Assembly: GCA_034780895.1 (NCBI GenBank)
Contig: JAUZTB010000001.1
Coordinates: 94,487,643-94,551,642 of the forward strand
Reading direction: 5' to 3'
Source: Rhynchobatus australiae
Taxonomy: Eukaryota
DNA length: 64,000 nt
Made by a program: the position numbers and the translations under genes. Each line of letters starts with the position of its first letter. Positions within the stretch are counted from its first letter, which is position 1. The notes under the pieces are model-generated. The model searched no databases. It was given only the letters and a program-made list of their open reading frames with translations, and was not told the DNA's origin. Shown here piece by piece: positions 8,385-61,770 of this stretch.

Positions 8385-8580
8385 TGATCTGAAATAAAAG
8401 AACAAAAAATGCTAGAAGTGCTCAACGGGTCAGTTAGCATCCAAGAAAAGAGAGAAAATGTGTTGACCTGAAACATTAACTCTGTTTCTCTTTCCTCAGA
8501 TGCTGCCTGACCTGCTGAATATTTCCAACATTGTCTCTTCTTATTTCAGACCTCCTGACACTACAGTTTTTTTGCTTTCC
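8385..8580. mobile_element. Penelope-derived fold-back element
   Basis: Left arm (tctgaaataaaag..aatgctagaagtgctcaacgggtcag..agcatc) is an imperfect reverse complement of the right arm (gatgctgcctgacctgctgaatatttccaacatt..ttatttcaga). Confidence 0.7.
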
Positions 8581-10844
8581 TTATCACTTTGAGTGTTTTA
8601 TCAATCACAGAATAATTTTACTGGCTCTGTGTGTATTGGTGTTTCTCTATCCCTGGTCTCTAAAGGACGTCAATTGTAACTCCAAACTATCTTGTCTTTA
8701 AGAACAAGCTGTTCCATTTCAAAATAAACCTTATCGATTTTCCTTGCATATCAAAACTAAGGTACAGAAATCAGTTTATGAAATCCTGTGCAAGAGTTCA
8801 ATGTTGTTAATTAATTCAAAACAGAATGCATCAACTATTTTTTCTAAGTTTGGGTCAAAATTTGTTGTCAGCAGCAAACCACCACAATTGTCACTGAGGT
8901 TTGTGCAAGACTTTGTGTGATTTGTGTGGGGAGGGCCAGAATAGCTGAAGAAATATTTATAGTAGTGAAGTAATACCCCTTGGCCTTGGTACCTGTTAAA
9001 ATCGTAAACTGCTTCTGAATGACTCTGACATTTAGAATGCAAGAAATACAAAAATCATAACCTTTATTATTAAAAATTAAACTAAAGTATCTTTCAATAA
9101 TTAATAACACAAGTAATTAAANNNNNNNNNNNNNNNNNNNNNNNNNNNNNNNNNNNNNNNNNNNNNNNNNNNNNNNNNNNNNNNNNNNNNNNNNNNNNNN
9201 NNNNNNNNNNNNNNNNNNNNNTTTATTATTAAAAATTAAACTAAAGTATCTTTCAATAATTAATAACACAAGTAATTAAAAACATTAAACAAAAGACAAT
9301 TAATGCAATAATTTAAGTTACATTATATTACATTCCCCACCACACCAACGAATGGTCACTGTTGTTCTGCCAGGTCTAACCTCACACTGATCCAGCAGAC
9401 TCCCTCGATTAAGTACTGTGGAACTACCACCACTTTGTGTGTTAGTGCTGGACTCTGTGAGGAGCCCACAATAAGCGCATTGTGCCAAGGATTGCAAAGT
9501 CCAGCTAGCAAGTTCAGGAGTTTGTGTTGCCATAAGAATCCTAAATCTTTTAGCAACTGCCACTGGCTCTGTATGAAATTGTTCATATTTCTGGCCCAGT
9601 CTGCTGTTGGCATTCGGAATGTAAAATGGATATTCTAATGCTCCAACATCTGAGCCACTACACTAAATAGCTAATTTTGATTCTGGGCGATTATATAAAA
9701 GGGAAGCTATTGGATTGTTCTTCCCTTACTTATCTGATTTGCATTGACGCCAACAAATAAATGTTTTGATCAATGCTGTATGGAGCAATGTATTTTGCAA
9801 AATTGGTACTGATGATTCCAGTGCATAGAAGGCCTGTTGCTTTGAAAATGGCTAAGGAGCATGTAAGGTTTTGTGAGGACTGAGAAGGGGCAAAATACGT
9901 TTTAAATAGAAAAGGAAGTTCAAGAAGAGAAAAACGATGGTGATTGACTGAAATTGTTTCAAATGTTGTTCCTTTGCCTGTGAGAAAGAATCCTGTTATA
10001 TAGAAATTGGTGATGGATTGGATTTCTCTGCCTNNNNNNNNNNGTTATGAACTGAACTGTCATTGATGCATAACACTTGATCCTGATCACCCAGCTCCTG
10101 GCACTAACCCTTCCCAATCATATGGCATTCTGCTGCAGACTTCACAAACTGCAAAGACAATTCATGTCTTTGTTTCCATGGAAATCTCCAGAGAGTTATT
10201 AAAAGAATAAATCTTCAATATTTCCGATTGAAAAAGCAGCTTGAGAGATCATTTCATAATAAGTACATCATCAATAGGGTGAAAGGTTGGAAATTATTAT
10301 TGGTAGCAAAAATAAAGATATGTATTGGAAATCATAAACAGCATCAATAGCAAGATCCCATATTCACACTGTACTAAATGATTCTTCTGCAAAATGCCTG
10401 ACAAAGTGGGTAGACCAGATCAGACAAGTGCAATCTTTATCACGTGTTTTAAGATATATCATATGAAACAGCCCTTGATAGAGAAGATTATCCCAAATAC
10501 CATAGTGGAACTGTTCTACTCATCTTCACTTGTTGAATGTGTCAAACACTGTGAGCCATAACTATTTCAGTTCACAGAATAATTCAAGAAAGGGATCAAT
10601 TCAATATCCCATCACTGTCACTAGGTGTCAGCATGTGCACTGAGTTAAAAATATCATGGGTTCCTTCCTCAAAGCGGGCTAACAACATCTAGTGGCGAAA
10701 AACAAGTATTTATAATTGCTTTGGAAAACAATATTAAAAAGACCATTCTTATTTATTTCCTGTATTCCAACTTTGTATCCAGACCTTTGAGTGGCTTTGA
10801 ATTGAAGTCACTTTCATCTAAATATTCATCCATTAAGTATACAG

Positions 10845-11046
10845 AGACACAAGAGATTCTGCAGATGCTGGAATCCGGAGCAAAACACACAAAATGCTGG
10901 AGGAACTCAACAGATCATGCAGCATCTCTGGAAGGAAATAAACAGTCGACGTTTCTGGTCAAGACCCTTCATCAGGACTTCATCATTTCCCACTATAGAT
11001 TCTGCCTGACCTGCTGAGTTCCTCCAGCATTTTGTGTGTATTGCTT
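10845..11046. mobile_element. Penelope-derived fold-back element with central hammerhead motif
   Basis: Arms gcaaaacacacaaaatgctggaggaactcaacagatcatgcagcatct and agattctgcctgacctgctgagttcctccagcattttgtgtgtattgc are inverted copies. The arm sequence matches the 3' terminus of the GIY-YIG element at 45520-45660. Confidence 0.8.
10944..10979 (-). ncRNA. Minimal type-I hammerhead ribozyme motif (Penelope-associated)
   Basis: Minus strand reads AGUC-CUGAUGA-AG-GGUC-UU-GACC-A-GAAAC-GUC-GACU. This gives stem I AGUC/GACU, core CUGAUGA and GAAA, a GGUC/GACC stem II, palindromic ACGU in place of helix III, and a GUC cleavage triplet. Confidence 0.7.
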
Positions 11047-11524
11047 CATTAAATATACCACTGAATAACTTTCATCCAATCCCGGTTGGAATTTCTTGCT
11101 AGAGGATGTTCCAATATTTAGACTGCTTTCAGTTTCCCACTTGCTGGATAGTACCTGAGCTCTTTTGCCTTCTGGCTCAAAGACAAGAATGCTACCACAA
11201 GAATAGCCGGTATTGACACAGAGACCAAAGAAAGAAGTGTATTTTGAAAAAAATATTTAATTTATTTGCATAGGTCCATGTCATTGTATGCATCAATTGG
11301 TTTCCTAGTAGCCCCTTACTTTGTAGCACAAATGTGCATTGGGATTAAAGATGTCTCTGAGACATTCCATTAAAATTTGACGACCAAAACAGCAACTGAA
11401 TCTCTAAGTTGTTTGGTGTTCCTTGATCGCTCAATAAATTATTTTGGGTTTCTGCTTGCAGGGTGCAAATTTTACCAGTTCTCATGTGAAATGGTCTGAG
11501 ATAGTTCCTTGCCGTGAAAATATT

Positions 11525-15134: not shown

Positions 15135-15410
15135 AAGGAGCTGGAGAACTCAGCGGGTCAGGCAGCATCTATGGAGGGAAATGGACAGTTGCCATTCTGG
15201 GTCCAGATCCTTCATCAGGACTGGAAAGAAAGTGGGGACATGGCCAGTATAAAAAGTTGGGGGTAAGAGGTGGAGTAAGAGCTGGCAGGAGATAGGTGGA
15301 TCCAGGTGAGNNNNNNNNNNNNNNNNNNNNNNNNNNNNNGAGGGGGAATGAAGAAAGAATCTGAGAGGTGATAGGTGGAAGTAACAAAGGGCTGAGTAAC
15401 AAATGTCCTG
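15135..15410 (-). mobile_element. Penelope terminal-repeat fragment
   Basis: Reverse complement of the same terminal sequence as 45350-45610. It includes a degenerate hammerhead motif at ~15186-15223. Confidence 0.7.
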
Positions 15411-18500: not shown

Positions 18501-20124
18501 CACTGCCTGGACATTATACTTTGCCAACTGCCTAGCAGATCCTTGCCTCATATCTGCCCTGATGTCCGATTTGAAATTAAAGTGTTCCAAAAATCTCAGC
18601 ATTCCTTAATTATGAGCCATTCAAATGACCTGACAATGATACTTTGCATTGAATAATTGAGACTTTAGATGGAAAAAAAAACTACTGTGACTCAAGGAAA
18701 AAATAATCAGTGTTGTGTAAAGGACAACAGAAGGTTCAACCTTTCTAACTTGGACCTGGGATTTATGTTGACAAATTACAACTTGAGGTGCTGCTACTGT
18801 TAAAGTTCTTGTTCAGGATAGCAAAAGACCAAGCAAACCAAGATATGCGTGGGAGACTCTCATTGGTAAATGCAAACTTTTGTCAAACGCTTTGGACTGA
18901 AAGGATACATGCTCAATAATAGTCTCCTCATGAAGCTTTGTCAAGAATCCTTAAAGGCAGAAGGATGTGCCTGTTTTTTTTTGTTCAGCTCTAAATCACC
19001 AATAGTCCACCATTTCCTTGGTTGGTGCTTCTCCATTTAGCCGGACCATTTTGCCAACTTGTTTGAGAAACTCAGTGAAGCTTCCTTTGCCACATAAGAC
19101 CTGGAACATTCCATTGCCCCTGAAAAAAAATGGAATTTATTGCTGCAGAGTCAGTATGTATAGTCCCAGCACAGTCTTCTGTTCTTATGGACTGCATAAG
19201 GTTGGCCCCAGGAGATTAACAGTCAAGAGCCTTTATCTCAGCTCCACACAGAACTCTGAGGCTATTGTCCTGCAAAAGAAGAAAATAAATTCTGAATTTT
19301 GAGGCCTTCTAGCAAAAGCCGTAGGTCAAAATGAGAATTTGATTGATGGTGCTGGTGATGCTGTTTAGCACGATACCTTTAACCTTGTGCCTCTTGACCA
19401 GCTCTGGGTCTCAATTTCCCAAAGTTGTCACAAAGAGTCATTGAAATCCTTATCTGTGCGTAGTGGGATTTTCTTCAATAATCTACATCAAAAACAAGCA
19501 TAAAAGACACTTGAACAATGATTCCAGAAACCACATGTGAACAAACACACTTATCCTATTCACTGAGATAAAGCTAAGTTATTGTGTTCTTTTTAGCACA
19601 AGTTTATTTGATTGTATATTGCTGGCACAGAGCTATTGATGTTACTTTCCATCATGAGGCAATATTTTAGCTTAAAATATAACATAGGGGCTGCAGGAAT
19701 ATTGGGGGCTGGGGAGGTGTGAGAGAGTGCTCATGGCATTTGCCAGTTGAGTGAACCAGGCTCATGGAAAGTTGGCTGTCAGTTCAACCCTGTACTCAAC
19801 AGAAGAGATCAAATATAAAAAACGTGGACTGAAGATTATTTCTGCCATTGCACTGGCAACAGAGCCGAACAAGTGAAAGCTAATTTTTATTCAAGGACTC
19901 TTACTGTTCACTCCACATTCCCAGCAAGAGGGCATTTTGTTTTATTGCCCTTGTTTCCTAATGGGAGACCAAAACTAATCCCACAGCTTTGTACCAGGCA
20001 CAAACCACGGGCTTAATCCTTGACGGATTTTTATATACAAACCTCCTGCATCTGCCTGGAATGGCATCTGAACTCACTCCTAAAGGATAATCACAAGTTC
20101 AAATAAATCACACTTTAATAAAAC

Positions 20125-21025
20125 ACGAAGGTTGGTAGTATTGTGGATAGTGTGGAAGGTTACTGTAGTTTACAACAGGACATTGATAGGATGCAGAGAT
20201 GGGCTGAGAAGTGGCAGATGAAGTTCAACCCAGAAAAGTGTGAAGTGACACACTTTGGAAGATCAAACTCGAAGGTTAATGGCAGAACTCTTAGCAGTGT
20301 GGAGGAACACAGGGATCTTGGGGTTCACGTCTATAGATCCCTCAAGGTTGTCAGGCAGGTTGATAGGGTTGTTAAGAAGGCATATGGTGTGTTGGCCTTC
20401 ATTAGTCGGGGTATTGAGTTCAAGAGCTGCCNNNNNNNNNNNNNNNNNNNNNNNNNNNNNNNNTAGAACTCTGGTTAAACCACACTTGGCGTATTGTGTT
20501 CAGTTCTGGTCGCCTCATTATAGGAAGGATGTGGAAGCTTTAGAGAGGGTACAGAGGGGATTGACCAGGATGCTGCCTGGATTGGAGAGCATGTTTTATG
20601 AGGATAGGCTGAGCAAGCCAGGGCTTTTCTCTTTGGAGAGAGGGAGGATAAGAAGTGACTTGATGGCGGTGTACAAGATGATAAGAGGCATAGATGGAGT
20701 GGACAGTCAGAGACCTTTTCTCAGGGCAAAAATGGCTCACAAGAGGGGACATAATTTTAAGGTGATTAGAGGAAGGTATCGGGGGTATGTAAGAGGCAAG
20801 TTTTTTACACAGAGTGGTGGGTGTGTGAAATGCACTGCCGGCAGAGGTTGTGGGAGCAGATACATTAGGGACATTTAAGAGACTCTTGGATAGCCACACA
20901 GATTACAGACAAATGGAGGGCTATGTAGGAGGGAAGAGTTAGATAGATCTTAGAGAAAAACAAAATGTTGGCACAACATCGTTGGCCAAAGAGCCTGTAC
21001 TGTGCCGTTATGTTCTTTGTACTAT
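20125..21025 (+). mobile_element. 5'-truncated CR1 (HER1-like) LINE
   Basis: LQQDIDRMQRWAEKWQMKFNPEKCEVTHFG; YCVQFWSPHYRKDVEALERVQR; RGHNFKV; ends in a CR1 tail. Confidence 0.95.
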
Positions 21026-26100: not shown

Positions 26101-28029
26101 TGATCTCTTTGGTAAATTCTACAAACACTTTTTGTTTGGCTCCTCATATTCATGTAGTTTTCCAAGTAGTGAAAGGGGCTTCCTGTCCAAGTTGAAATAA
26201 CTCATCTTCCTGAACCAAGAAGAGGTCTTCATCAGTTTGAGAAGTCCAGTGAAGTTTATTCCAGTATCCCTTTGAATAGGATTCACTCTCAGCTACTGTA
26301 AGTTACAAGGTGCAAAATTATTGCTTGAAAACAACAATCTATAAATAGAATAAACTGCAGGGAAGGTTGTCCATGAGACCCAGTTGTCACTTTAGGCAAA
26401 GGTACATTTAACTGTGAAGACAGTCTATGGAATCTACTTGGAACAGAGTATGGAATTTGACACATGATTAAATATGAAGTGAAAATAGGAATACAATTGT
26501 TCCTGTAAATTTCAGATCTACCAAAGTTTATTTAAATACTTGAGCTTGGCTGCACATCAAAAATGACATAATTATTATTATTAGAACATTTCTGTGTTGC
26601 CAATGATTTCCAAATGAATAATTTCAAAGATTCGAAACTAATAAATATGCATTGCCAGGAATCTCCCCCCTCCCCCTGAAGTGAAGAGGCTTTTACTCTC
26701 AGTGTCTTGAGTCATTTTTACCTTTTTGGTGGTACCTCCAAACTCCATAAGGGCTCCTTTGCTGGGCTGCATTCAAGTCACTTCATCTTGAACACCAGCG
26801 ACCTTGCAGTGGTGGTCCTAAACAGGAGCTGGGTAATGTGGAGAAGATAAAACCAGTGCCCAGTGGACGCTTCCGGGGCATAATGAATCCTTCTCGTCAT
26901 GTTGTCTGATTGACACCTGAGAAGCTGGCATCATGCCATCAAACATCCAATTCTGTTTCTCCAGTCTCCATAAACAGGCTCAAGAACTGCAGCAATGCCT
27001 CATCCACCTTTCTGTTTCTAACAACACTGATTAAGCCTGTTGGTCAGAATGAAATGCTCATCCAGTTGTAAAATTTCTGCCTACACAGGTGGCCAAACCG
27101 CATGTTGTTCTTTCATGGTTAAAGCACCAAAGCATTTGTTTGGCATGAATCTCATGAAGCTCTCAGAGATCCATGGCAAACCAACTCTTTGGTACGTTAA
27201 CATCCTAACTTTGTCATGTGTGTACCAAAAGGGCTATGACACTCAGAGCATGGTGCCCTCTAATCTCAGCAGACTAAGTGTGAAACATTCACTTCACATC
27301 GGACCATGGGACTCTATTGTCAGATGGGCACAATCAGCCATGGTGATGAATACTCCTGGTGTGCTTGCAATCTCCTTGCCAAAGATCTCTGGTAAAGGGC
27401 CTCTGTATTACATGGCATGTTCACTACTTACAAGACTTAAATATTAATAGATGGCAGTTACATCATTTAATCATAAGATACTTATCTAAACCACTTTAAC
27501 AAAATGTAAAGGAAATTTTGCATCCACTGCTGAAGCTGGCAATCTGTTCCGCCTCATTTCTAAAGTACGGCTCACACAATGCAAAGTGAGTGACTTGAAA
27601 TTTTATCGTGAAACGAATCACAAGTTTTCGCCTGAATATCTTCTTGGATCATAATTACAGAAAAACAAGGCATTTCCTTTATGAAGTGGAATGTTAGCAA
27701 TAGAAGTGTACGTTGGACAACTGTACAAATGTTACCACACGCAGTTTGAATGGCCGCTAGGTTTAGCCACTCTGACATCTGTAAACACAGGTGCACTTTT
27801 AACCCTTCCTTTTCTACATGCATGTCTTTATTTCCATGACTAAAAGCCATTTGCCANNNNNNNNNNNNNNNNNNNNNNNNNNNNNNNNNNNNNNNNNNNN
27901 NNNNNNNNNNNNNNNNNNNNNNNNNNNNNNNNNNNNNNNNNNNNNNNNNNNNNNNNTCCATGACTAAAAGCCATTTGCCATCCATTTTAAAAACCACAAC
28001 GAATAATTTTCCTGTGGGGTCTGATGAAT

Positions 28030-28245
28030 CATAAAATAAAAACAGAGAACAGTGGATATTTTCAGCAGATAAAGCATTTTGTGTGGAAAGAGAAATAGAG
28101 TTAATACTCTGGCTGAAAGGTCATCGAGCTGAAATGTTTACTCTGTTTCTACCTCCACAGATACTGCTTGACCTGCTGATTGTTGGCAATGTTTTCTTTG
28201 GTTTTATTTCAGATTTTCAGCATCTGCAGATTTTATTGCTTTTTT
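28030..28245. mobile_element. Penelope-derived fold-back element
   Basis: Same inverted-arm structure as 8385-8580, with a degenerate central hammerhead-like stretch. Confidence 0.65.
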
Positions 28246-36129: not shown

Positions 36130-37280
36130 ACTGATCAAAAAAAAGGTATTGCTTAATTAAAACATAAAATGCTGGAAATAATCAGTAGGGCAAGCAGCCA
36201 CTGTAGAGAGGGAAACAGAGTTAATATTTCAATTACTGCTTAAATATGTATGGAAATAGGACACCCTTATTTAGAATGGAGCATTTAAGTGTTGAATATC
36301 AGTGTGCTGCCTTGATTTTTTTATTGTTACGTTGTAAAGTATGTGTGGTCAGTGGATTCTTAACCTCTCATGTAATCCATTGCAGAATATTATGTCATGA
36401 TACATATGCAACAAACTGCTTAAAGTGTATATAGTTTATTCAAGGGCTCTTCATCGACTGCCTCTGGAACTTACTGCAAAATATTGTTGCAATCAAGAGG
36501 GCAGCAAGTCAACCGACACATTCTTAAAGGGGTGATAACCTTAAATTTACAATCAGAATCACACACACAATGCATTTCAATCAAGCTTAATTATAATTTT
36601 AAGTCCATCATGGATGCAAAGTAGATTCCAAAATAAAGCTGAATTTGGGTACAATTCACTGCAGCATGATATTGTGTTGTTTGNNNNNNNNNNNNNNNNN
36701 NNNNNNNNNNNNNNNNNNNNNNNNNNNNNNNNNNNNNNNNNNNNNNNNNNNNNNNNNNNNNNNNNNNNNNNNNNNNNNNNNNNNNNNNNNNNNNNNNNNN
36801 NNNNNNNNNNNNNNNNNNNNNNNNNNNNNNNNNNNNNNNNNNNNGACTCTAAGTTTTAAATATATTTTGTAAAATGGTTGGTTTGATTTGTAAATGAGTT
36901 AGCTTGATTTTCTGCTCCACTACTAAGCCATGCCCTAATATGCGCAAAACTAATTTTTGACTGCAGAGAATTTATATGTAGCATGTATCAGTTTTTTTTT
37001 GCCTCCTTCTTGGCTTCAGTGACATTTATCATATCTTCCAGAGTATTTGACAAACCTCCTTCAGCTTCTAATAGACAGGGAGCAATTCCATGCAATGCAG
37101 TGATAATACACTGAACAGCAATGTAGAGGAACATGGTGTCGGGAAGATGGGAGGTGGGTGTGGTAAGTGAGCCAGTAATTGGATATATATGCTATCCTAT
37201 CAGCATTTTACAGTGTCTGCAGACAGTGAGGAAACAACACTCTTGGTTCAGCACCTCTTTCACTGTGTTCAAAGTCATTT

Positions 37281-38260
37281 TAGAACATAGAACAGTACAG
37301 CACAGTATGGGCCCTTCAGCCCACGATCTTGTGCCGAACTACATGAACACCTACTCCACAATCAATCTAACCCTTCCCTCCTGCACAACCCATAACCCTC
37401 CATTTTGCTTACTTCTGTGTGCCTATCTGAGAGCCTTTTAAATGTCCCGATTGTATCAGCCGCTACAACCACCCCTGGCAGTGCATTCCAGGCACCCACC
37501 ACTTTCTGTGAAAAGAACTTACCTCTGACATCTACCCTGAACATTCCTCCTCTGACCTTACAGATGTCCTCTGGTATTGGCTATTGCCACCCTGGGGAAA
37601 AGGTGGGATAGAGTGCTGGCTGTCCACTCTATTAATGCCCCTCATAATCTTGTACATCTCTATCGTCACCTCTCATCTTACATAACTCCAAAAGAAAACC
37701 CTAGCATGCTGAATCTTTCCTCATTAGATGTTCTCTAATCTAGGCAGCGTACTGATAAATCTCCTCTGCACCCTCTCGAAAGCTTCTACATTCTTCCTAT
37801 AATGAAGTGATCAGAACTGAACACAATTAAATGTGGTCCAACCAGAGTTTTATAGAGCTGTAACATTACCTCATGGGTCTTGAACTCAATCCCCAACTAT
37901 TGAAGGCCAACACACCATACGCCTTCTTAACCACCCTTTTAACTTGCACGGCAACTTTGAGAGATCTATGGATTGGACCCCAAGATTCCTCCGTTCCTGC
38001 ATACTGTTCCTGCCATTAACCTTGTACTCCGCTTTCATGTTTGTTCTTCTAAAGTGCATCACTTCACACTTTTCCAGATAGAACTCCATCTGCCACTTCT
38101 CCGCCCAACTCTGCATCCTTTCTGTATCCTGTTGTAACCTATGACAACCTTCTGCACAATCCACAACACCTCCAACCTTCATGTCATCCACAAACTTACT
38201 AACCCATCACTCCACTTCCTCATTCAAGTCATTTATAAAAATCACAAAGAGCAAGGGTCC
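37281..38260 (-). mobile_element. 5'-truncated CR1 (HER1-like) LINE
   Basis: SKFVDDMKVGGVVD..LQQD..WAEKWQMEF; RGKFFSQKVVGAWNALPGVVV; CR1 tail. Closely similar to 20125-21025. Confidence 0.95.
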
Positions 38261-40646: not shown

Positions 40647-42352
40647 AGGAGATGGACAAGGTCCTTAATGAATATTTCTGCTCTGTTTTCACTATGGAGA
40701 AAGACATGGAGACGTCAGAATGAGGAAAAGTAAATGGGGAGATCTTGGGGATAGTCCGCATTACAGTAGAGGAAGTGCTGGATGTCTTAAAAGGGATAAA
40801 GGTAAACAAATCTCCAGGGCCTGACCAGGTTTATCCAAGAACACTGTAGGAGGTTAGAGAAGAAACTGCAGGAGCCCCAGCTGAGATATTTGCATCATCA
40901 TCAGCCATGGGTGAGGTGCCAGTAGACTGAAGGGTAGTGAATGTTGCGCCTTTATTTAAGAAGGGTGGCAAAGAAAAACCTGGGAACTATAGACCAGTAA
41001 GTCTTAACATCAGTTGTAGGTAAGTTACTGGAGAGGATTCTGAGGGATAAGATACAGTATATGTACATCTGGTAAGATAGGGGTTAATTAGAGGTAGTCA
41101 GCATGGCTTTGTACCTGGCAGATTATGTCTTGCAAACTTGATTGAGTTTTTTGATGAGATAACCAAGAAAGCAGATGAGGCTTGGGCAATGCTCATGGTT
41201 TATATGGACTTCAGTGGAGCCCTTGATAAGGTTCCACATGGTAGGCTGCTCTGGAAGGTTAGATCACATAGAATCCACGGAGAGCTGGCTAATTGGATAC
41301 ACAGTTGGCTTGATAGTGGAAAGCAGAGAGTGATGGGGAAGGTTGTTTCTTGGACTGGAGGCCCGTGACTTGTGGTGTGCCTCAGGGGTTGGTGCTGGGC
41401 CTATTGTTGTTTGTCATCTATGTCGATGATTTAGATAGGAATGTACAGGGCATGGTTAGTAAGTTTGCAGATTACACTAAAATAGGTGGTATAGTGGAAA
41501 ATGAAGAAGGTTATCAAAAATTACAGGNNNNNNNNNNNNNNNNNNNNNNNNNNNNNNNNNNNNNNNNNNNNNNNNNNNNNNNNNNNNNNNNNNNNNNNNN
41601 NNNNNNNNNGGACTTTCACAGCGAATGGCAAGTGTTGTGGAACAGAGGGACTTTGGGGTACAAGTACATGGTTCACTGAAAGTGGAGTCACAGGTAGACA
41701 GGGTAATGAAGAAGGTTTTTGACAGACTGACCTTCACAAGTCAGAGCATTGAGTATAAAAGTCGGGAGGTCATGGTGCAGTTGTTCAGGATGCTGGTGAG
41801 GACGCACTTGGATTATTGTGTTCAGTTTTGGTCACCCTGCTATAGGAAAGATGATATTAAGCTGGAAAGAGTGTAGAAGAGGTTTACATGAATGCTGCCA
41901 GGATTTGAGGGACTGAGTTATAGGGAGAGGTTGGACAGGCTAGGACTTTATTCCTCGGAGCATGAATTTATTCCTTGGACTTTATTCCTTGGAGAGGTGA
42001 ATAAAATCATGAGGGGCATAGATAGGGTGAATGCACTCATTCTTTTTCCCAGAGCTGGGGAATCAAGAACAAGAGGGCATAGGTTTAAGGTGAGAGGGGA
42101 AAGATTTAATAGGAACTTGAAGGGCAACTTTTTTACACAAAGGGTCATATGTATGTGGAATCAGCTGCCAGAGAAAGTGATTGAGGCGGGTACAATAACA
42201 ATTTAAAAAGACAGTTGGACAGGTACATGGATTAGAAAGGTTTATGGGCCTAACGCTGGCAAATGGGACAAGCTTGGATGGGGCATCTTGGTTGGCAAGG
42301 GCCAATTGGGCCAAAGGGCTTGTTTCTGTGCCATATGACTCTGTGACTCTAT
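40647..42352 (+). mobile_element. CR1 LINE, RT domain to 3' end, with stops and frameshifts
   Basis: KSPGPD, PGNYRPVS, VYMDFSGALDKVPH, GVPQGLVLGLLLF, SKFADYTK, YCVQFWSP, RTRGHRFKV, and a tail ending (gactct)n. Confidence 0.95.
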
Positions 42353-43257
42353 TTCTGTCTGTGCATATTTCTTGAGATGATAAGTTTCAAGCACTGCCAC
42401 ACCACTTCCCCAGCACTAAAAAGTAACCAGATCTTCAGGTGGCAAATGCTTTGCGGGAGAGTTTAAAAATGCAATATTTCAAATTACACTTATTTTTAAG
42501 ATTTCTGTCTTTATTTTTCTTTCACCTGATTTAATTTTTCTACACTTATTTCTCTTTCTGTACATGATGTACTGTACATTATGTTCTACACCTCCAAAAT
42601 CTGATTAGTTAAAGGAGTGCACAGTTTCTCTTGTTTATTCAGGTCCCAGATACTAGTTTTCCTCACTCCGTCGTTATCTGTTTGTAATTTCCACAACTTG
42701 CAAAGAAATGAAAAATTTAGAAACCTAACGTTGAGGTCAAACTAATTCCAGCTGCTATTAGTTGCCCAGCCCTTGCAAATTATGACCTAATATTAAGTAT
42801 TATTTATTGTAGATGTTTCCATGAATATAATTGCACCAAAGAGAATTGGACAACACAATATTTGTTGACTTGATCATCACATTTTCCTTTTCTGGCTGAA
42901 TACTTTATCAAATGTAAGTGTTGGACAGCTTGATGGCTTGGTCTGGTCACATGTTGGGAATTGGCTGAGAAGTTGATTTTATTCTTCCTTTCCACCTTGT
43001 GAAGGTTGTAGAGCCCAGATACAGAACATTGATCTAAACAAGGAACAAGAGTCCCAATATTTCATCATACTTTCTGAAGGAATCTGAATCTGTAGTATAG
43101 CATGCATCTTCTACATGCACAAGTAACTCAGAGCACAGTGACATAAATGAATGGGCTACATTTACAATAGAAAGTTAAAGTACACAATGCATGTGCAGGT
43201 AATTCTTGAATGTTCACTGTGGATTTCACGCCCTTTTAACTTGTGCAATTAACTTGC

Positions 43258-43550
43258 ATAAGGGACATTTAAGAGGCTCTTAGATAGACACACGAATGAT
43301 AGAGAAACGGGGAGCTGTGTGGGAGGGAAGGGATGGATAGATCTTAGAGCAGGATAAAATGTCGGCACAACATTGTGGGCCGAAGGGCCTGTACTGTGCT
43401 GCAGTGTTCTATGTTCACGGGTATATGGATGACAAGAGTTTAGAGGGCTAAAGGCCAAGTGCTCGCAAATGGGATTAAGCTTTAGGATACATCTTGGTCG
43501 GCACGGACAGGTGTGGGCCGAAGGGCCTTTCCCGGTGCTGTACTGCTCTT
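43258..43550 (+). mobile_element. Two tandem CR1 3'-end fragments abutting the PMVK promoter
   Basis: Tails gggccgaagggcctgtactgtgctgcagtgttctatgttc and gggccgaagggcctttcccggtgctgtactg. Confidence 0.85.
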
Positions 43551-43847
43551 TGGCACAAGCGGAATGAATGTTGGGCCATTCTAACCGTAGAGGCGCCCGG
43601 ACCGTTTAGCAGGGGACTCATCAGTGTGGATCGCACCACCGGGAGGAGAGGGGAGTTGTAAAGAGAAATTAATTTGTCATCTGAATGTTTCGGGCCCTGT
43701 CCCCGGGCTGGACATTTACCTTTTACATTTAGATAGAATATAAGGAGGGGATTTGTGTGGAGAGAGATCGCTGTTCAGAGGTTGGGGCTTGGGGTGGGAC
43801 GTTTGTCAGTCACCCCCCCCGGAGCAGTGCCGGGGTCCCTGCCCGCC

Positions 43848-43930
43848 ATGACGGCGCCGGCGCTGCTGCTGCTCTTCAGCGGGAAGAGAAAGTCGGGCAA
43901 GGATTTCCTCACCGACCGCATTCAGAGCAG
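43848..43930 (+). CDS. PMVK: Phosphomevalonate kinase, coding exon 1
   Basis: [27 protein letters not shown](R) matches the animal PMVK N-terminus with its P-loop (human [23 protein letters not shown]). The donor CAG|gtcagt at 43931 is phase 2 within the R codon, as recalled for human exon 1. Confidence 0.95.
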
Positions 43931-44060
43931 GTCAGTGGTGGGGGCTCCACGCCCGCCGGCCCCGGTCTCCAGTCCCCGCCCGGCGCCGCCTGTGCCCCGG
44001 GGGAGAGGGCGGCCTGCTCGGTCCCAGCGCCAACTCCGTCCCCCGGACAACGGTCCGGGA

Positions 44061-44120
44061 CGGTGCGCGATCCCGGCTCCTGGTGCGCGGCCCCGGCGGC
44101 TGGTGCGCGATCCCGGCTCC
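44061..44120. repeat. 3 x 20-bp GC-rich tandem repeat in PMVK intron 1
   Basis: cggtgcgcgatcccggctcc / tggtgcgcggccccggcggc / tggtgcgcgatcccggctcc. Confidence 0.85.
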
Positions 44121-44689
44121 TGGCACCTGCAGCCTCTGGTGTTTTCTCCTGGATGTAGAGCAGTCCCCACCCGAACTGCCTTCTCCCCCAGACATCACCC
44201 CTCCTATTTCAGGAGGGCCCTTGGTGTTGGTGTTGGTTTATTATTGTCACTTGTACCGAGGTCCAGTGAAAAACTTGTCCTGCACACCGATCGTACAGGT
44301 CAANNNNNNNNNNNNNNNNNNNNNNNNNNNNNNNNNNNNNNNNNNNNNNNNNNNNNNNNNNNNNNNNNNNNNNNNNNNNNNNNNNNNNNNNNNNNNNNNN
44401 NNNGCTGCAGTTCCCATTATTTAAATGATAATTTGATTGAAAGTGTTGCTTATATTATAAAACCTGAGATGGCATTGACTTATACAGCCAGAGAAATCCA
44501 CAATTTGCATCAATCTCTGGACCATTTAAATAATTTGGTCCACAGGCAACAGGTGTATTTAACTTGAATAAATGTATAATGTACAGTAGAAAATAAACCT
44601 TTCAAGTTGACATCACAGATTGGTGTTTGTTCAGAAAATGATCTGATGGATTGAAATACATTTCCTGTAGAATTACTCAGGGCACCACA

Positions 44690-45660
44690 TATCTCCGCCA
44701 CTTCCGCCATCTCTAATGGGACCCACCACCAAGTACATCTTCCCCTCCCCACCCCTTTCTGCCTTTCACGGGGATTGCTCTCTCTGTGACTCCCTAATAC
44801 ACTCCTCCCCCCTCCCCACCCATCCTGCTCCCGCCCTGGGAACTTTCCACTGCCCTGCCATAGGTGTAACACTTGCCCCTACACCACCTCCATCACCTCC
44901 ATCCAGGGACCCAAACAGTCCTTTCAGGTGAGACAGAGTTTCACCTGCACCTCCCTTAATATCATCTACTGCGTTCAGTGCTCCAAGCGTGGCCTCTTCT
45001 ATATTGGTGAGACCAAACGCAAACTAGGTGACCATTTCGCAGAACACCAGCGCTCTCTCCGTAACCGCAATCTGCATCTCCCCATTGCCAGTCACTTCAA
45101 CTCCCCCTCCCACTCCATCACAGATATGTCAGTTCTCAGCCTCCTCCACTGCCAGGAGAATTCCAAGTGCAAACTGGAGGAACAGCACCTCAGTTTCCAT
45201 CTTGGAACCTTGCAGCCTAACAACATGACATTGAATTCTCTCACTTTAAGTAATCCCCACAACCACCCCCCAATACCCACCCAACCTTCTTTTCTTCCCT
45301 TTCCTAACATATCTCTCTTTTTTCTATCCGCCTTTTACCCTCCTCATGTTTGACCCATCGCCCGGTAAATCTGCTCTTCCCTCCTTCCCCGCATCTGCCT
45401 ATCACTATCTCACCTGCATCCACCTATCACCACCCTGTGTCCACCCCACCTCCCCACTTTTGTCCAAATATTACGGCTCTGCTTTTCCCTCCTATATATT
45501 GGGCTTCCCCTTTTCCAATCTTCAGTCCTGAAGAAGAGTCCTGACCTGCAAGGTTGACAGCCTGCTTTTCTCCATGGATGCTGCCTGGCCCCCTGAGTTC
45601 CTCCAGCATCAGAGTGTTTTTCATCTAGATTCCAGCATCTGTGGTTCTTTGTTTCTCTTT
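44690..45660 (+). mobile_element. Penelope-like element 3' part: GIY-YIG endonuclease plus terminal repeat
   Basis: FTCTSLNIIYCVQCSKRGLFYIGETKRKLGDHFAEH..PIASHFN..LEEQHLSFHLGTLQP is a PLE GIY-YIG signature. The terminal repeat carries a degenerate hammerhead at 45523-45560. Confidence 0.92.
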
Positions 45661-49600: not shown

Positions 49601-50080
49601 TTATTGACATACACTGAAATAGGCCTTAACTGAATTCCTTCAGTATTAGTTAAAGGGTCTGACTTTTTCATGCCAAAACTGCAATGTCTTTTGTATTAAC
49701 ATAGGCAACAAATGAGAAAGCAACTGCCCAAACCTGACGCAAGATCTTTGTAAATCAGGGGTCTAATGCTAGTCGAGGTTCTTTTTGCAAAACTTTTGCC
49801 CTGAACACAGCCATCTGTTAAAGATGTACCTGGATGTGGAGTGTGGATCCATGCCTGGCAACAATGCAGTACCAGAGTCCTTGCTCATCACCATCCTAAT
49901 CATTTCACTGCTGACCTCTCAACCACTCTTTACTCCCCAATTAACTTGCCTTCTCCCTGGAATTACATGAATGCAGCACCTTAGCATAAAATACCACAGC
50001 TTGGCTTGAAAATTGAAGAACTGCAGAAGGTGGAAATCTGAAATAAAATCAAAAAATGCTGGAAACATTCAGCAGGTCAG

Positions 50081-50602
50081 ATTTATTAGTCACATGTACA
50101 TGGAGACACACAGTGGAATGTGACTTTTTGCGTTAATAGCAAACACAGTCTCAGAATGTGCTGGAGGCATCCTGCAAGTGTCTCCAAACTTTCAGTGCCA
50201 ACATAGCATGACCACANNNNNNNNNNNNNNNNNNNNNNNNNNNNNNNNNNNNNNNNNNNNNNNNNNNNNNNNNNNNNNNNNNNNNNNNNNNNNNNNNNNN
50301 NNNNNNNNNNNNNNNNGTGACTTTTTGCGTTAATAGCCAACACAGTCTGAGAATGTGCTGGAGGCAGCCTGCAAGTGTCGCCACACTTTCAGTGCCAACA
50401 TAGCATGCCCACAACTTCCTAACCCATATGTCTTTCGGAATGTGGGAGGAAACCGGAGCACCCGGAGGAAACCCACACAATCACAGGGAGAACATACAAA
50501 CTCCTTACGGACAGTGGCGGAATTGAACCCAAGTCGCTGGCGCTGTAATAGCTAACTGCTATTGTTAGCGTAATGTTACACTAACCACTACACTACTGTG
50601 CC
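50081..50602 (-). mobile_element. tRNA-derived V-SINE (same family as 33415-33685)
   Basis: Reverse V-domain gtgggaggaaaccggagcacccggaggaaacccac, head gaattgaacccaagtcgctggcgctgtaatag, and tail tttattagtcacatgtacat. Confidence 0.85.
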
Positions 50603-50642: not shown

Positions 50643-50708
50643 TGGAGATGCTGGGGATTGAACCTGGGACCTCATACATGTGAAGCATGCGCTCTCCCAC
50701 TGAGCTAC
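50643..50708 (-). pseudogene. tRNA-Ala(CGC)-derived pseudogene, anticodon now CAC, first 6 nt lost
   Basis: Minus strand GTAGCTCAGTGGGAGAGCGCATGCTTCACATGTATGAGGTCCCAGGTTCAATCCCCAGCATCTCCA is near-identical to vertebrate tRNA-Ala-CGC from nt 7. The acceptor and T stems are broken. Confidence 0.85.
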
Positions 50709-51954
50709 CGCAGAAATGGAAAGTGAGTTGAATTTTCAGGTCAAGACCTTTCAACAGAACCCAAGCTGCTTGGGTTGTCCAGCGTGTATTCACAGTCTGC
50801 CAATATCATCTGAATGAAGCAGGGGTAGCCCAATATTGGATTTGCCTCACAACTTCCAATTCCAGTGCAGGGATTAAAATTCAAACCAAAGGCTTTAACC
50901 TTTTCCTAATTAAATTAATCATATACAAGGGAAAGTAAAGATTTGGCAGGCAGATCCAGTGTGATTAATTTTCCAATGAAAATATTAATTCATATATTCA
51001 GACAAATGATTGAATTCAGGTGAAAATATTATACAATATCAAGAGATACTAACCCTTGAACATAATGGCTGTATTGGGTGTATTAGCAAAAATTCCAATA
51101 GTGCTTCAGTAGAGGCCTTTAAACAATAGGACGTTTCAGTTTTCAAAATATGTCACTTTTCCATCCAGGACAGGAGAGAAATTGGCCACTGTAAATTGCT
51201 TGGGGTGTGTTGTAGAACCTGGGGAGAGCTGATGGAAATGTAGAGAGAATAAAATGGAATTAGTGTAAATGGATGTAGGTTTGATGGGTCAATAGGTCTA
51301 TTTCCATGTTGGATATCACTATGACTGCATGAGGCCTCACTCTTGACTAAGGAGCCTTTTAGAACCTCTGTCTAAACCATATCCTCTTCTTGCTATCTTC
51401 ATAGAGCAGGAAAGCTTCTCAACCCAGAGTATCAGACTAAAATACAGAGGGATCCAAAGACAGCAATGTCCTTATCAACAGCGCAGAAGGCAGGTTAAAA
51501 TTGAAGAGGATAAGAGTGAAGTACCTCATCCAAGGCCAGATCACCCAGCTAATTTCAATTCCTTGTCCAGTATACCTGGTTTCTGCCAAGAGGGTTCCAA
51601 TTGCCCAGATTTAATTGTCTTCCATAAGACCCCATGCCAAAGTCAGGTGTATTAACATTTTGCATGAAAGTTCAAGTTTCGTGCCACAAGACATCATTGA
51701 CATACTTTATAATCACCAACAATAGGCAGTGAGTTGAGGCGATAGCCTAAAGTGCTTTGAGTTTTTTGCATTTTTGTGCACAAACCTAAAAATTCAGTCT
51801 TATTATGTTGAACCACAAATGTGTTTAAAGCAACATGCTGCGATCCTTGTCCTTTTGTGGAGTTTGTTGAGATTATCTGTTTTCTCATTTCCAGTTTTAA
51901 GCTGTTTTCCCTGAAATGTAGGACTGCCAATGTCTGCTTAGGAGACGAAGCAAC

Positions 51955-52594: not shown

Positions 52595-54010
52595 CCTTAT
52601 TCTGTCATGAGATGTGGGTGTCATTGACGAGGTAAGTATTTGTTGTTTTTCTGACAGTGCTCCTGAGAACAATGCACTGCTGGGTACTGCTGAGCTGCTA
52701 CATTATAACAATCCAGTCTGTGTAGTGAAGGTACCCCCAAAAATTTGTTAGAAAGGTATCTCCAGGATTTTGTATAAAAAAGAAGAAACAATGTTTTTCC
52801 AAGTTAGATTGGTAAAGAGAGCAATTTGCAGATGGTGCATCTGCAGCTCTTGGCCTTTTTGGAGGTAGACATTTTGGTTTTGGGAGGTGCTGTCAAAGAA
52901 GCCTTGGCAAATTGCTGCATTCCAACTTGTACACTACATAGTGTGGTGCGCTGGTGGTGGAAAGGGTAAATGATGGATGAGACCCCCTGGTATCAGGCTT
53001 CTTGTGTGTTGTTTTAGCTGTACATGTCCATAGAGTCATAGAGTTATACAGCATGGAACAGGTCATTTTGGCCCAATTCATCCTCATCAACTTAGTCGCC
53101 TATCTAAACTAGTCCCATTTGCCCACATTTAGCCTATATCCCTCTGAAACTTTCCTATCCATGTACCTATCCAAGTGTCTTTTAAATAAGACCATAAGAC
53201 ATAGGAACAGAAGTAGGCCATTCAGCCCATCAAGTCTGCTCTGCCATTCAATCATGGCTGATTTATTTCTCACCCCCAACCCCATTCTTCTGCCTTCTCC
53301 CTGTAACCTCTGATGCCCCTACTAATCAAGAACCTCTCAACCTCCGCTTTAAATATACCCAATGACTTGGCCTCCACAGCCGTCTGTGACAATGTGTTCC
53401 ACAGATTCATCACCCTCTAGCTAAAGAAATTCCTCCTCACCTCAGTTCTAAATGTTGTTATTGTACCTGTCTCAACCACTTCCTCTGGCAGCTTGTTCGA
53501 TGTACGAAACATCCTCTGGGTGAATAAGTTGCCCCTCAGGTCCCTTTTAAATCTTTCCCCTCTCACCTTAACCTATGTCCTCTACTTTTGATTCTCTTTC
53601 CCTGGGAAAAAGACTGTGTGCATTCACCATATTTATGCCCCTCATGATTTTATACTTCTTGACTTCTTCACACATCTCACATTGTTGTGGATTCTGCAAT
53701 GGCTTTGGAGCATCAGGCAGTGAGTCTCTCTTGCTGAACATCAGGCCTCTGACCAGTTCTTATTGCCACAGTATTTATGTGGCAGCTCTAATTAAATATC
53801 TGGTTTATCGTGAGGACAATGGATTGAGAAGTGGTAACAGTATTGGCTATCATTGAGAAGTGATTGGACTTTCTCCTGTGGGAGATGGTCATTGTGTGAT
53901 GCAAATGTTATTTAACACTCTTCGGATCAAGCCCAAATGTTGCCTCAGTCTTATTGCATGTAGGAGTGGACTGCTTCATTATCTGAGGAGTTGCTAGTGG
54001 AAGTAAACAG
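52595..54010 (-). mobile_element. Old LINE interrupted by a CR1 3' end (53030-53655), itself interrupted by a second CR1 3' end (53188-53453)
   Basis: The outer CR1 sequence tgtcttttaaat|gttgttattgtacc is split by the inner CR1 tail, with TAAAT on both sides. The flanks resemble the reverse of the LINE family at 3350 and 54610. Confidence 0.75.
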
Positions 54011-57310: not shown

Positions 57311-58184
57311 AACCAGCATCTGTTTTTAATTCAGATTTCCAGCATCTGCAGGTTTTTGATTTCCAATACCTATCCAGCGGGTGAGAGTAGAAATTTAAAT
57401 AACAAGGTGCCATATCCAGGGACCCAGGGGATCCATCTGTGGAATTTAAATAACATCAGGGCCATTTTCTCAGACCAAGCACTCCAAAGGTATGAATTGT
57501 CTGTAACCTTTGAGCTTTGCATTAAAATAACTTTCAAGAGAAAAGAAAAGAAGTTCAGCTGGCTGCTCAGAAAGCATGGTGCCAAAGCTGAAAATCTGAA
57601 AATAAGATCAGAAAAGTCTGGAGAGCAAAGATTGCAGGCAGTTAGTGGTTCGGGCCTGAAGACTTTGTCCAAATATCGATTGGCTCCTCTTTTGGCCAAT
57701 TTTCTGGCTGAGTGCAAGGGATCATGAACCTACCCACAGCACCCAGTGGGACAAAGAATAGGAAGATAATAAGGATATAGATCCTGATATGAAACATCAG
57801 TCTATCCTACAAAGACCAAGAAAATCATTCAAGTTTTGTAAAACTTAGATATACTTGAGAAATTTGGCCGAGCAAACTGGGAAAAGGCCAATATAGAGAC
57901 GATGACTATCAACCTCGATGACTCAGCAGTATGGGTCTGGAGGGTGTTCTTTTTTGTTAGTAAGAAGACAGGTTGTGGTAATTAAGATGAGTAAATTTGA
58001 TCAAAATTGTTGGTCTGTATCTTCATGTGTTTCAGAATGAAGCAACTTAATGTTTGGTATTCACCCTCATCTCGCCCACGATTTGTTTAGTTTACTTTCA
58101 GGATGCTCAAAAGGATTTGCATGTTATTTGTGTGTGCAAACCAAAATCTAGAAGGCCTCTTAGAAAGATGTAAGTTTCATAAGC

Positions 58185-61639: not shown

Positions 61640-61770
61640 AAAAAACTGCAGATATTGAAAACCTGAAATAAAAATAGAAGATGCTAGAAGTGCTCTACAA
61701 GTCAGGCCACATCTCCAGAAAGAGAAACAGAGTTAATATTTCAGATTGAAGACCCTTCTTTAGAACAAAC
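61640..61770 (-). mobile_element. Penelope terminal-repeat arm with degenerate hammerhead
   Basis: aactgcagatattgaaaacctgaaataaaaatagaagatgctagaagtgctc..gagaaacagagttaatatttcagattgaagacccttctttagaac. Confidence 0.65.

Follow-up and report, generated by a model that had tools for sequence, protein, structure and literature searches.

The minus-strand motif at positions 10944-10979 of the window, the whole 64,000-nt stretch of DNA analysed here, is in all likelihood the minimal hammerhead ribozyme from a Penelope-like retroelement (PLE) end, which lies in a 204-nt, TSD-flanked fold-back, has lost the G10.1-C11.1 pair and probably does not cleave. The features of the insertion are as follows.

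10831..10842, minus strand: TSD, 3' copy (12 nt), matching 11047..11058
10843..10878, minus strand: 36-nt tail, present on the direct arm only (from the sequence and the 3'-end distribution of copies)
10879..10943, minus strand: pLTR 3' part (direct arm), a 32-nt piece of which has 6,971 exact matches in the 2.23-Gb genome
10944..10979, minus strand: minimal type-I hammerhead (supported by the family majority and 146 exact intact copies in the genome)
10976-10979/10944-10947, minus strand: stem I of the hammerhead (from the sequence)
10969-10975, minus strand: CUGAUGA (from the sequence)
10968, 10967 and 10956, minus strand: extra A, G10.1 and position 11.1 (A here, C in the family), respectively
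10952-10955, minus strand: GAAA
10949-10952, minus strand: palindrome ACGU
between 10948 and 10947, minus strand: predicted cleavage site
10980..10984, minus strand: junction filler repeating part of the hammerhead core (from the sequence; resembles the short fillers at other +1 junctions)
10985..11046, plus strand: second copy of the pLTR 3' part, inverted and 5'-truncated, without tail or hammerhead
11047..11058, minus strand: TSD, 5' copy (12 nt), matching 10831-10842 with 1 mismatch

The hammerhead motif

A sequence-only reading of the window had reported the motif with correct letters, strand and coordinates, and the core elements that it listed (CUGANGA, GAAA and the GUC/UH triplet) are all present. 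It had also proposed a search with a descriptor of minimal hammerheads. When run, the strict type-I pattern (stem I of at least 4 pairs, CUGANGA, GAAA, a 15.2/16.2 pair and UH, without loop III) matched once in the window, at 10944-10979, versus a mean of 0.007 matches over 300 Markov-1 simulated windows; the motif is real and beyond chance. The loose CUGANGA-N5-30-GAAA pattern occurred in the window at chance level (6 observed versus 6.1 expected), and an Rfam scan of the window returned zero hammerhead families at E<=10. As claimed, this is the sole window copy with unmutated core letters: among the 6 copies aligned, it alone keeps CUGANGA, GAAA and GUC, and the other family fragments inspected in the window either lack the core or begin downstream of it. 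The identification as a PLE minimal hammerhead likewise stands, with the family majority keeping the whole core.

The description of the core as intact is accurate for the core letters and overstated beyond them, as the G-A mismatch at the base of stem II corresponds to the conserved G10.1-C11.1 pair, changed by C>A at 10956. The proposed stem II, GGUC-UU-GACC with a 2-nt loop, is impossible; the sequence folds as 3 bp with a CUUG tetraloop. Helix I of at least 4 pairs and the palindromic 15.1-16.1 (ACGU) are present in this copy, the G10.1-C11.1 pair closing helix II is absent (A at 10956), and the copy is, judging from its sequence, a damaged member of a family that does have this pair.

The fold-back insertion

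The fold-back element of about 200 bp that the same reading had described is real: its arms (10879-10939 and 10985-11045, 61 nt each) are 85% complementary, and the element spans 10843-11046 (204 nt) between 12-nt TSDs with 1 mismatch. The order of the insertion is TSD, inverted arm, 5-nt filler, hammerhead, direct arm, 36-nt tail and TSD, with the motif located in the loop region of the 61-bp inverted repeat. From its letters, the filler at 10980..10984 is probably a product of slippage or templated insertion. At the tail/TSD edge (10841-10844), loose ends were found in three DNA-like runs. The 3' ends of 42 of the 89 copies fall at family positions 131-140 and the remainder are spread over 85-130, i.e., the second internal start site is broad, not sharp.

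Junction positions and arm lengths vary among copies and the inverted arm is missing from many of them, suggesting that the hairpin is made at insertion. The insertion appears to be old, because the two arms differ at 8 of 61 sites and the 3' junction of 10843-11046 is spanned from the unique flank by single contigs of two other organisms. An inverted truncated copy, a one-sided tail of 30-40 nt and a TSD are described among the features of PLE insertions (PMC8557442, PMC3846280), and the anole PLE protein is reported to have extended both target strands in vitro, starting at two internal sites by which the tail is defined (PMC11167929). By analogy with known PLE biology, the RT/endonuclease of the element would cut an AT-rich target and two cDNAs would be primed from these two sites, or else a single cDNA might snap back. 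One cDNA would reach the first base of the hammerhead and the other would stop just short of it, after which the ends would be joined with a short filler. In an active element, the RNA would be cleaved after GUC only as a dimer formed via the ACGU palindrome, or with the help of a protein.

In a separate locus, L016 (G000:C42:28473544-28473770), both arms reach the distal end of the tail, and the inverted repeat extends a further 12 nt or so into the flanks, where the duplication is inverted instead of direct. A recurrent GATGAAG junction, found in 5 of 30 loci selected for fold-backs, was set aside as a product of query-driven selection.

The family and its link to RT and GIY-YIG proteins

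The 204-nt copy at 10843-11046 holds no ORF sequence. In longer copies, a pyrimidine-rich pLTR lies upstream and, beyond it, a reading frame in which a CX2-5CXXC motif occurs together with a GIY-YIG-like segment. In L025/L061, L062, L067 and L069 (4 of 12 endonuclease-anchored loci, by a strict regular expression), a GIY-YIG-like remnant is located about 800 nt upstream of the hammerhead on the same strand, and L063 matches the C-terminal third (RT thumb, linker and GIY-YIG) of an RT+GIY-YIG protein of 891 aa (31%, E=2e-47). [quoted passage not shown] The search with the upstream protein piece gave 36,684 first-look candidates, 150 of which were scored. Other members and relatives of the family in the window are listed below.

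15140..15300, minus strand: closest family copy on the same strand; its core is mutated and it has upstream pLTR
44790..45656, plus strand: related PLE 3' end, with a CX2CXXC and GIY-YIG remnant (44790-45353) and a pLTR with a mutated hammerhead at 45524
8400-8580, 28020-28245, 36155-36231, 50016-50080, 57321-57366 and 61646-61766: copies of an older PLE subfamily, some of them fold-back

The 44790-45353 remnant has a Pfam GIY-YIG match at E=0.007, below the curated cut-off. The PLE end at 44790..45656 matches the C-termini of 810-930-aa proteins, 5 of 6 of which have Pfam matches to both RT and GIY-YIG, mostly below cut-off. Among the family remnants, Pfam returned nothing in one set (0/1) and weak GIY-YIG matches, below curated cut-offs, in 2 of 6 in another, and none of the 634 candidates in the protein search for longer homologues passed. 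The CX2-5CXXC motif precedes GIY-YIG in L062, L063, L065, L066, L069 and L072 as well as in the window remnant at 44790-45353; such a linker motif is defined as common to Neptune, Nematis and Naiad (PMC8557442). By these sequence features, the family is an endonuclease-bearing (EN+) Penelope-like element and appears Neptune/Nematis-like from its Cys motif, a clade placement read solely from remnants. The host looks like a cartilaginous fish, in that the best named protein match comes from a ray and the repeat types are in keeping with this.

The family search that selected for fold-backs gave 4,950 first-look candidates, of which 40 were scored. Stem I pair 4/33 changes from C-G to U-A in 4 of 10 rows, which were hand-picked and are related; in shuffles of the same 10 hand-picked, related rows, the cell count was reached in 9/500, the score in 26/500 and the pair count in 212/500. 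Three copies with the exact U-A variant are present in the genome. Position 21 is split evenly between A and G (18/18), with pairing to U16 maintained. Older-subfamily window copies that span the motif carry U-A for C-G at pair 4/33 and often a GUU-type triplet. At two sites, G000:C1:28147508-28148095 and G000:C64:3329602-3330041, 2-3 hammerhead-bearing pLTR ends lie within 200-600 nt, two of them on the same strand; these may be short tandem or retrozyme-like units in which dimers could arise. In many copies, the frame from the arm ATG (MLPDLLSS...) is open from family position +54 to +136, through the tail, and may be the start of the ORF or open by chance.

Prospects of cleavage at 10944-10979

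That this copy stands out, or is likely to self-cleave, is unsupported: the G10.1-C11.1 pair is lost, the arms are 13% apart and stem I is predicted to be locked. Position 11.1 is C in 146 exact genomic copies, A in 9 and G in 1; given nine copies with the same change, C>A may mark a small subfamily variant. The folding energy of stem II is -1.5 kcal/mol (3 bp) here versus -4.8 (4 bp) in the intact copy L048. The dimer-hammerhead fold reaches -6.8 for this copy versus -13.4 kcal/mol for L048, both far above the respective dimer MFEs. The predicted pairing probability of stem I is 0.92-0.99 within the hairpin versus 0.31-0.43 in the bare 36-mer, with stem I predicted closed inside the 60-bp hairpin, which would be expected to hinder the strand exchange needed for a dimer. 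No intact same-strand partner hammerhead was found within the window. With the pair broken, no partner at hand and stem I predicted to be held within one molecule by the hairpin, cleavage is unlikely here and, on its sequence and predicted folds, the copy is probably inert.

A 2017 paper reportedly described dimer cleavage of PLE hammerheads. Monomeric minimal hammerheads are reported not to cleave and dimers to cleave weakly, and G10.1-C11.1 is termed highly conserved among minimal hammerheads (PMC4209133). The hammerhead of Poseidon_Ac (PAc) is reported to have cleaved only with protein (PMC11167929). No published cleavage rate for a G10.1-A11.1 mismatch turned up in our literature search. 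Helix-II-less minizymes are described as less active, sometimes comparably active (PMC544870), so that the loss of G10.1-C11.1 need not abolish activity.

The copy shares 79-92% identity with 9 copies that have intact hammerheads. The unmutated core does not call for selection. In a sample anchored on the arm and not on the hammerhead, comprising 93 of the first 100 listed arm matches, all on contig C1, the core CUGANGA..GAAA..UH is kept in 17 of the 93 copies and everything is kept in 1 of the 93, among the matches listed. Given thousands of exact arm matches in the genome, some copies will keep the core letters by chance.

Alternative readings of the locus

Two other accounts of the locus have to be set against a worn PLE insertion. 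According to one, the ribozyme at 10944-10979 is still active or is used by the host, and it cuts a read-through transcript. The core letters, stem I, the ACGU palindrome and GUC are indeed unchanged despite the decayed arms, the insertion is common to related organisms and helix-II-less minizymes can keep some activity (PMC544870). However, the same copy has a broken G10.1-C11.1 pair, a predicted locked stem I and a window without a partner, whereas the persistence of core letters, seen in 17 of the 93 unselected copies among the matches listed, needs no selection. We consider this account very unlikely. The other holds that the fold-back propagates itself as a non-autonomous, MITE-like or retrozyme-like unit, to which the inverted repeats belong. 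Many fold-backs of 170-210 nt have a hammerhead near the loop, and non-LTR retrozymes are reported as PLE derivatives, also in one chondrichthyan (bioRxiv 10.64898/2026.07.22.740005). Yet the sample behind this abundance selects for fold-backs by design, the junction position and arm length change from copy to copy, as does the TSD length (about 10-17 nt seen), and the tail is mostly confined to one arm. Moreover, the tandem repeat that defines retrozymes is absent here: there is one hammerhead between the TSDs, and the nearest same-strand copy, 4.2 kb off, is mutated. A self-propagating unit is therefore extremely unlikely.

5' ends at the first base of the hammerhead

At the level of the family, many insertions begin at the first base of the hammerhead (+1). 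Across the genome, a flank without C directly precedes +1 in 511 copies versus 113 at the control position +4, or about 885-1,021 versus 285 junctions after correction for the flank filter; 3,732 copies continue past +1 into the pLTR. In the arm-anchored sample, from which 15 of 93 rows cut by N were dropped and in which 32 of the 78 others extend beyond -26, 16 of the 46 5' ends between -26 and +53 fall within -5..+2, and the best 7-nt window was as dense in 7 of 100,000 permutations. Among the 511 flanks, 60 were taken and 8 that were still pLTR were dropped (n=52); the base before +1 is G in 36 of these 52 (29% expected, p=2.6e-9). A C follows 5 of the 7 inverted arms that end at +1, which is the same signal on the other strand. 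The context of +1 fits YYANWYY, the initiator (Inr) pattern, with TTATT or TATATA about 30 nt upstream. A TATA/Inr-like pLTR promoter has been proposed for rotifer PLEs (PMC3846280), and in L1 insertions of full length an extra 5' G is reported to mark the mRNA cap (PMC11702581).

The pile-up of 5' ends at +1, the G at -1 and the Inr/TATA-like context suggest a capped transcript starting at the ribozyme. We tentatively propose, with a confidence just short of even, that in this family, which is of a cartilaginous-fish type, transcription from the pLTR begins at the first base of the hammerhead; the ribozyme would then be the capped 5' end of the RNA, and cleavage would take the cap off. The roughly one thousand +1 stumps with an extra G would then be a fossil map of the start, and uncleaved RNA would be the inserted template. 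No report of a capped transcription start at a Penelope hammerhead was found in our literature search.

The pile-up could instead stem from repair microhomology, snap-back, an RT pause or a pyrimidine tract with a CAG splice acceptor, and we regard this as a serious, if somewhat doubtful, possibility. Half of the junction flanks (26 of 52) have a 5-mer in common with the hammerhead and are possibly templated, and R2 is known to undergo snap-back synthesis once its cDNA is full-length (PMC11371274). When the possibly templated flanks are removed, G at -1 nevertheless persists in 18 of 26 (p=2.7e-5). The sequence upstream of +1 can also be read as a branch point, pyrimidine tract and CAG, and the start of Drosophila virilis Penelope is reported to lie 46 nt ahead of an intron whose end is at helix I (PMC2377424, PMC4209133). 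Against splicing, a shared short first exon upstream of +1 was not seen among the 60 flanks, a TSD lies within a few bases of +1 in several of them, and 0 of 78 unselected ends are at +3, although exon ends in AG would mask such ends. At -1, the copy in the window carries A instead of G, which favours an origin other than a cap.

A footprint of cleavage was sought among the same insertions. Free 5' ends show no excess at the GUC site (5 of 46 unselected ends at positions 31-35 versus 2.9 expected, p=0.16), and genome-wide there are 20 junctions at +33 versus 23 at the control position +37. In 19 of the 20 junctions at +33 the flank letters fit a fold-back through stem I (only L091 was checked in sequence); such fold-backs could come from cleaved RNA or from microhomology, which flank letters cannot separate.

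Other features of the window

The hammerhead at 10944-10979 is located about 33 kb upstream of a GC-rich segment (43737-44306, plus strand), the apparent first coding exon of a phosphomevalonate kinase (Pfam P-mevalo_kinase, E=2e-4, below cut-off). On the minus strand at 50650-50760, a tRNA-like sequence (Rfam tRNA, 32.3 bits) directly follows a decayed older-subfamily hammerhead, replacing the arm, and is perhaps a SINE head inserted into or fused to the pLTR. Decayed LINE RT fragments and short interspersed repeats occur at 20122-21020 (with Pfam RVT_1 at 20122-20430, E=2e-4), 37283-38206, 41317-42206, 43257-43414 and 53455-53653. The 97-nt and 59-nt duplicates beside N gaps at 50120/50317 and 9063/9222, respectively, are probably assembly overlaps.

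Comparison with known systems

Both the motif and the shape of the insertion have already been described, and the 10944-10979 copy is just one of thousands of worn stumps. What could matter is the pattern across the family, as it bears on what PLE hammerheads do: in PAc, cleavage is reported to be dispensable for insertion in vitro, and no cleaved ends are reported from RNA-seq (PMC11167929). Should the RNA begin at the ribozyme, the cap would be lost on cleavage, which would serve as an off-switch or in translation control rather than in making the template.

The motif resembles the published descriptions of PLE minimal hammerheads in being of type I, with a helix I of 4-5 bp, an extra nucleotide between 9 and 10.1 and a palindromic 15.2-16.2 without loop III, and in that these are mostly single dispersed copies of truncated PLEs. 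It differs in lacking the highly conserved G10.1-C11.1 pair, and helix II in the family is 4 bp with a tetraloop as opposed to the 7-8 bp described in Schistosoma. Minimal hammerheads have been reported in fish, coelacanth, Xenopus and reptiles, and the account, as far as considered here, does not name sharks or rays. In full-length L1 (PMC11702581), copies sharing one 5' end are likewise described with an extra G at the 5' junction; L1 belongs to another retroelement class, and for the present family we infer the cap origin. PAc, from the green anole (Frangieh et al. 2024, PMC11167929), is similar in its hammerhead near the pLTR end, in the two 3' end points that define the tail and in its uncleaved RNA as the main template, which parallels the lack of a free-end excess at the cleavage site here. 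By contrast, the ORF of PAc is described as starting in stem II, whereas the frame from the core ATG of the present family closes after about 20 codons, and the account of PAc, as far as considered here, does not mention a transcription start at the hammerhead. Although the copy at 10843-11046 is reduced to 204 nt without ORF sequence, it shares with the insertion units described for EN+ PLEs the inverted truncated copy on the 5' side, the one-sided tail and the TSD, and its family shares with them the C-terminal GIY-YIG preceded by a Cys motif (PMC8557442, PMC3846280).
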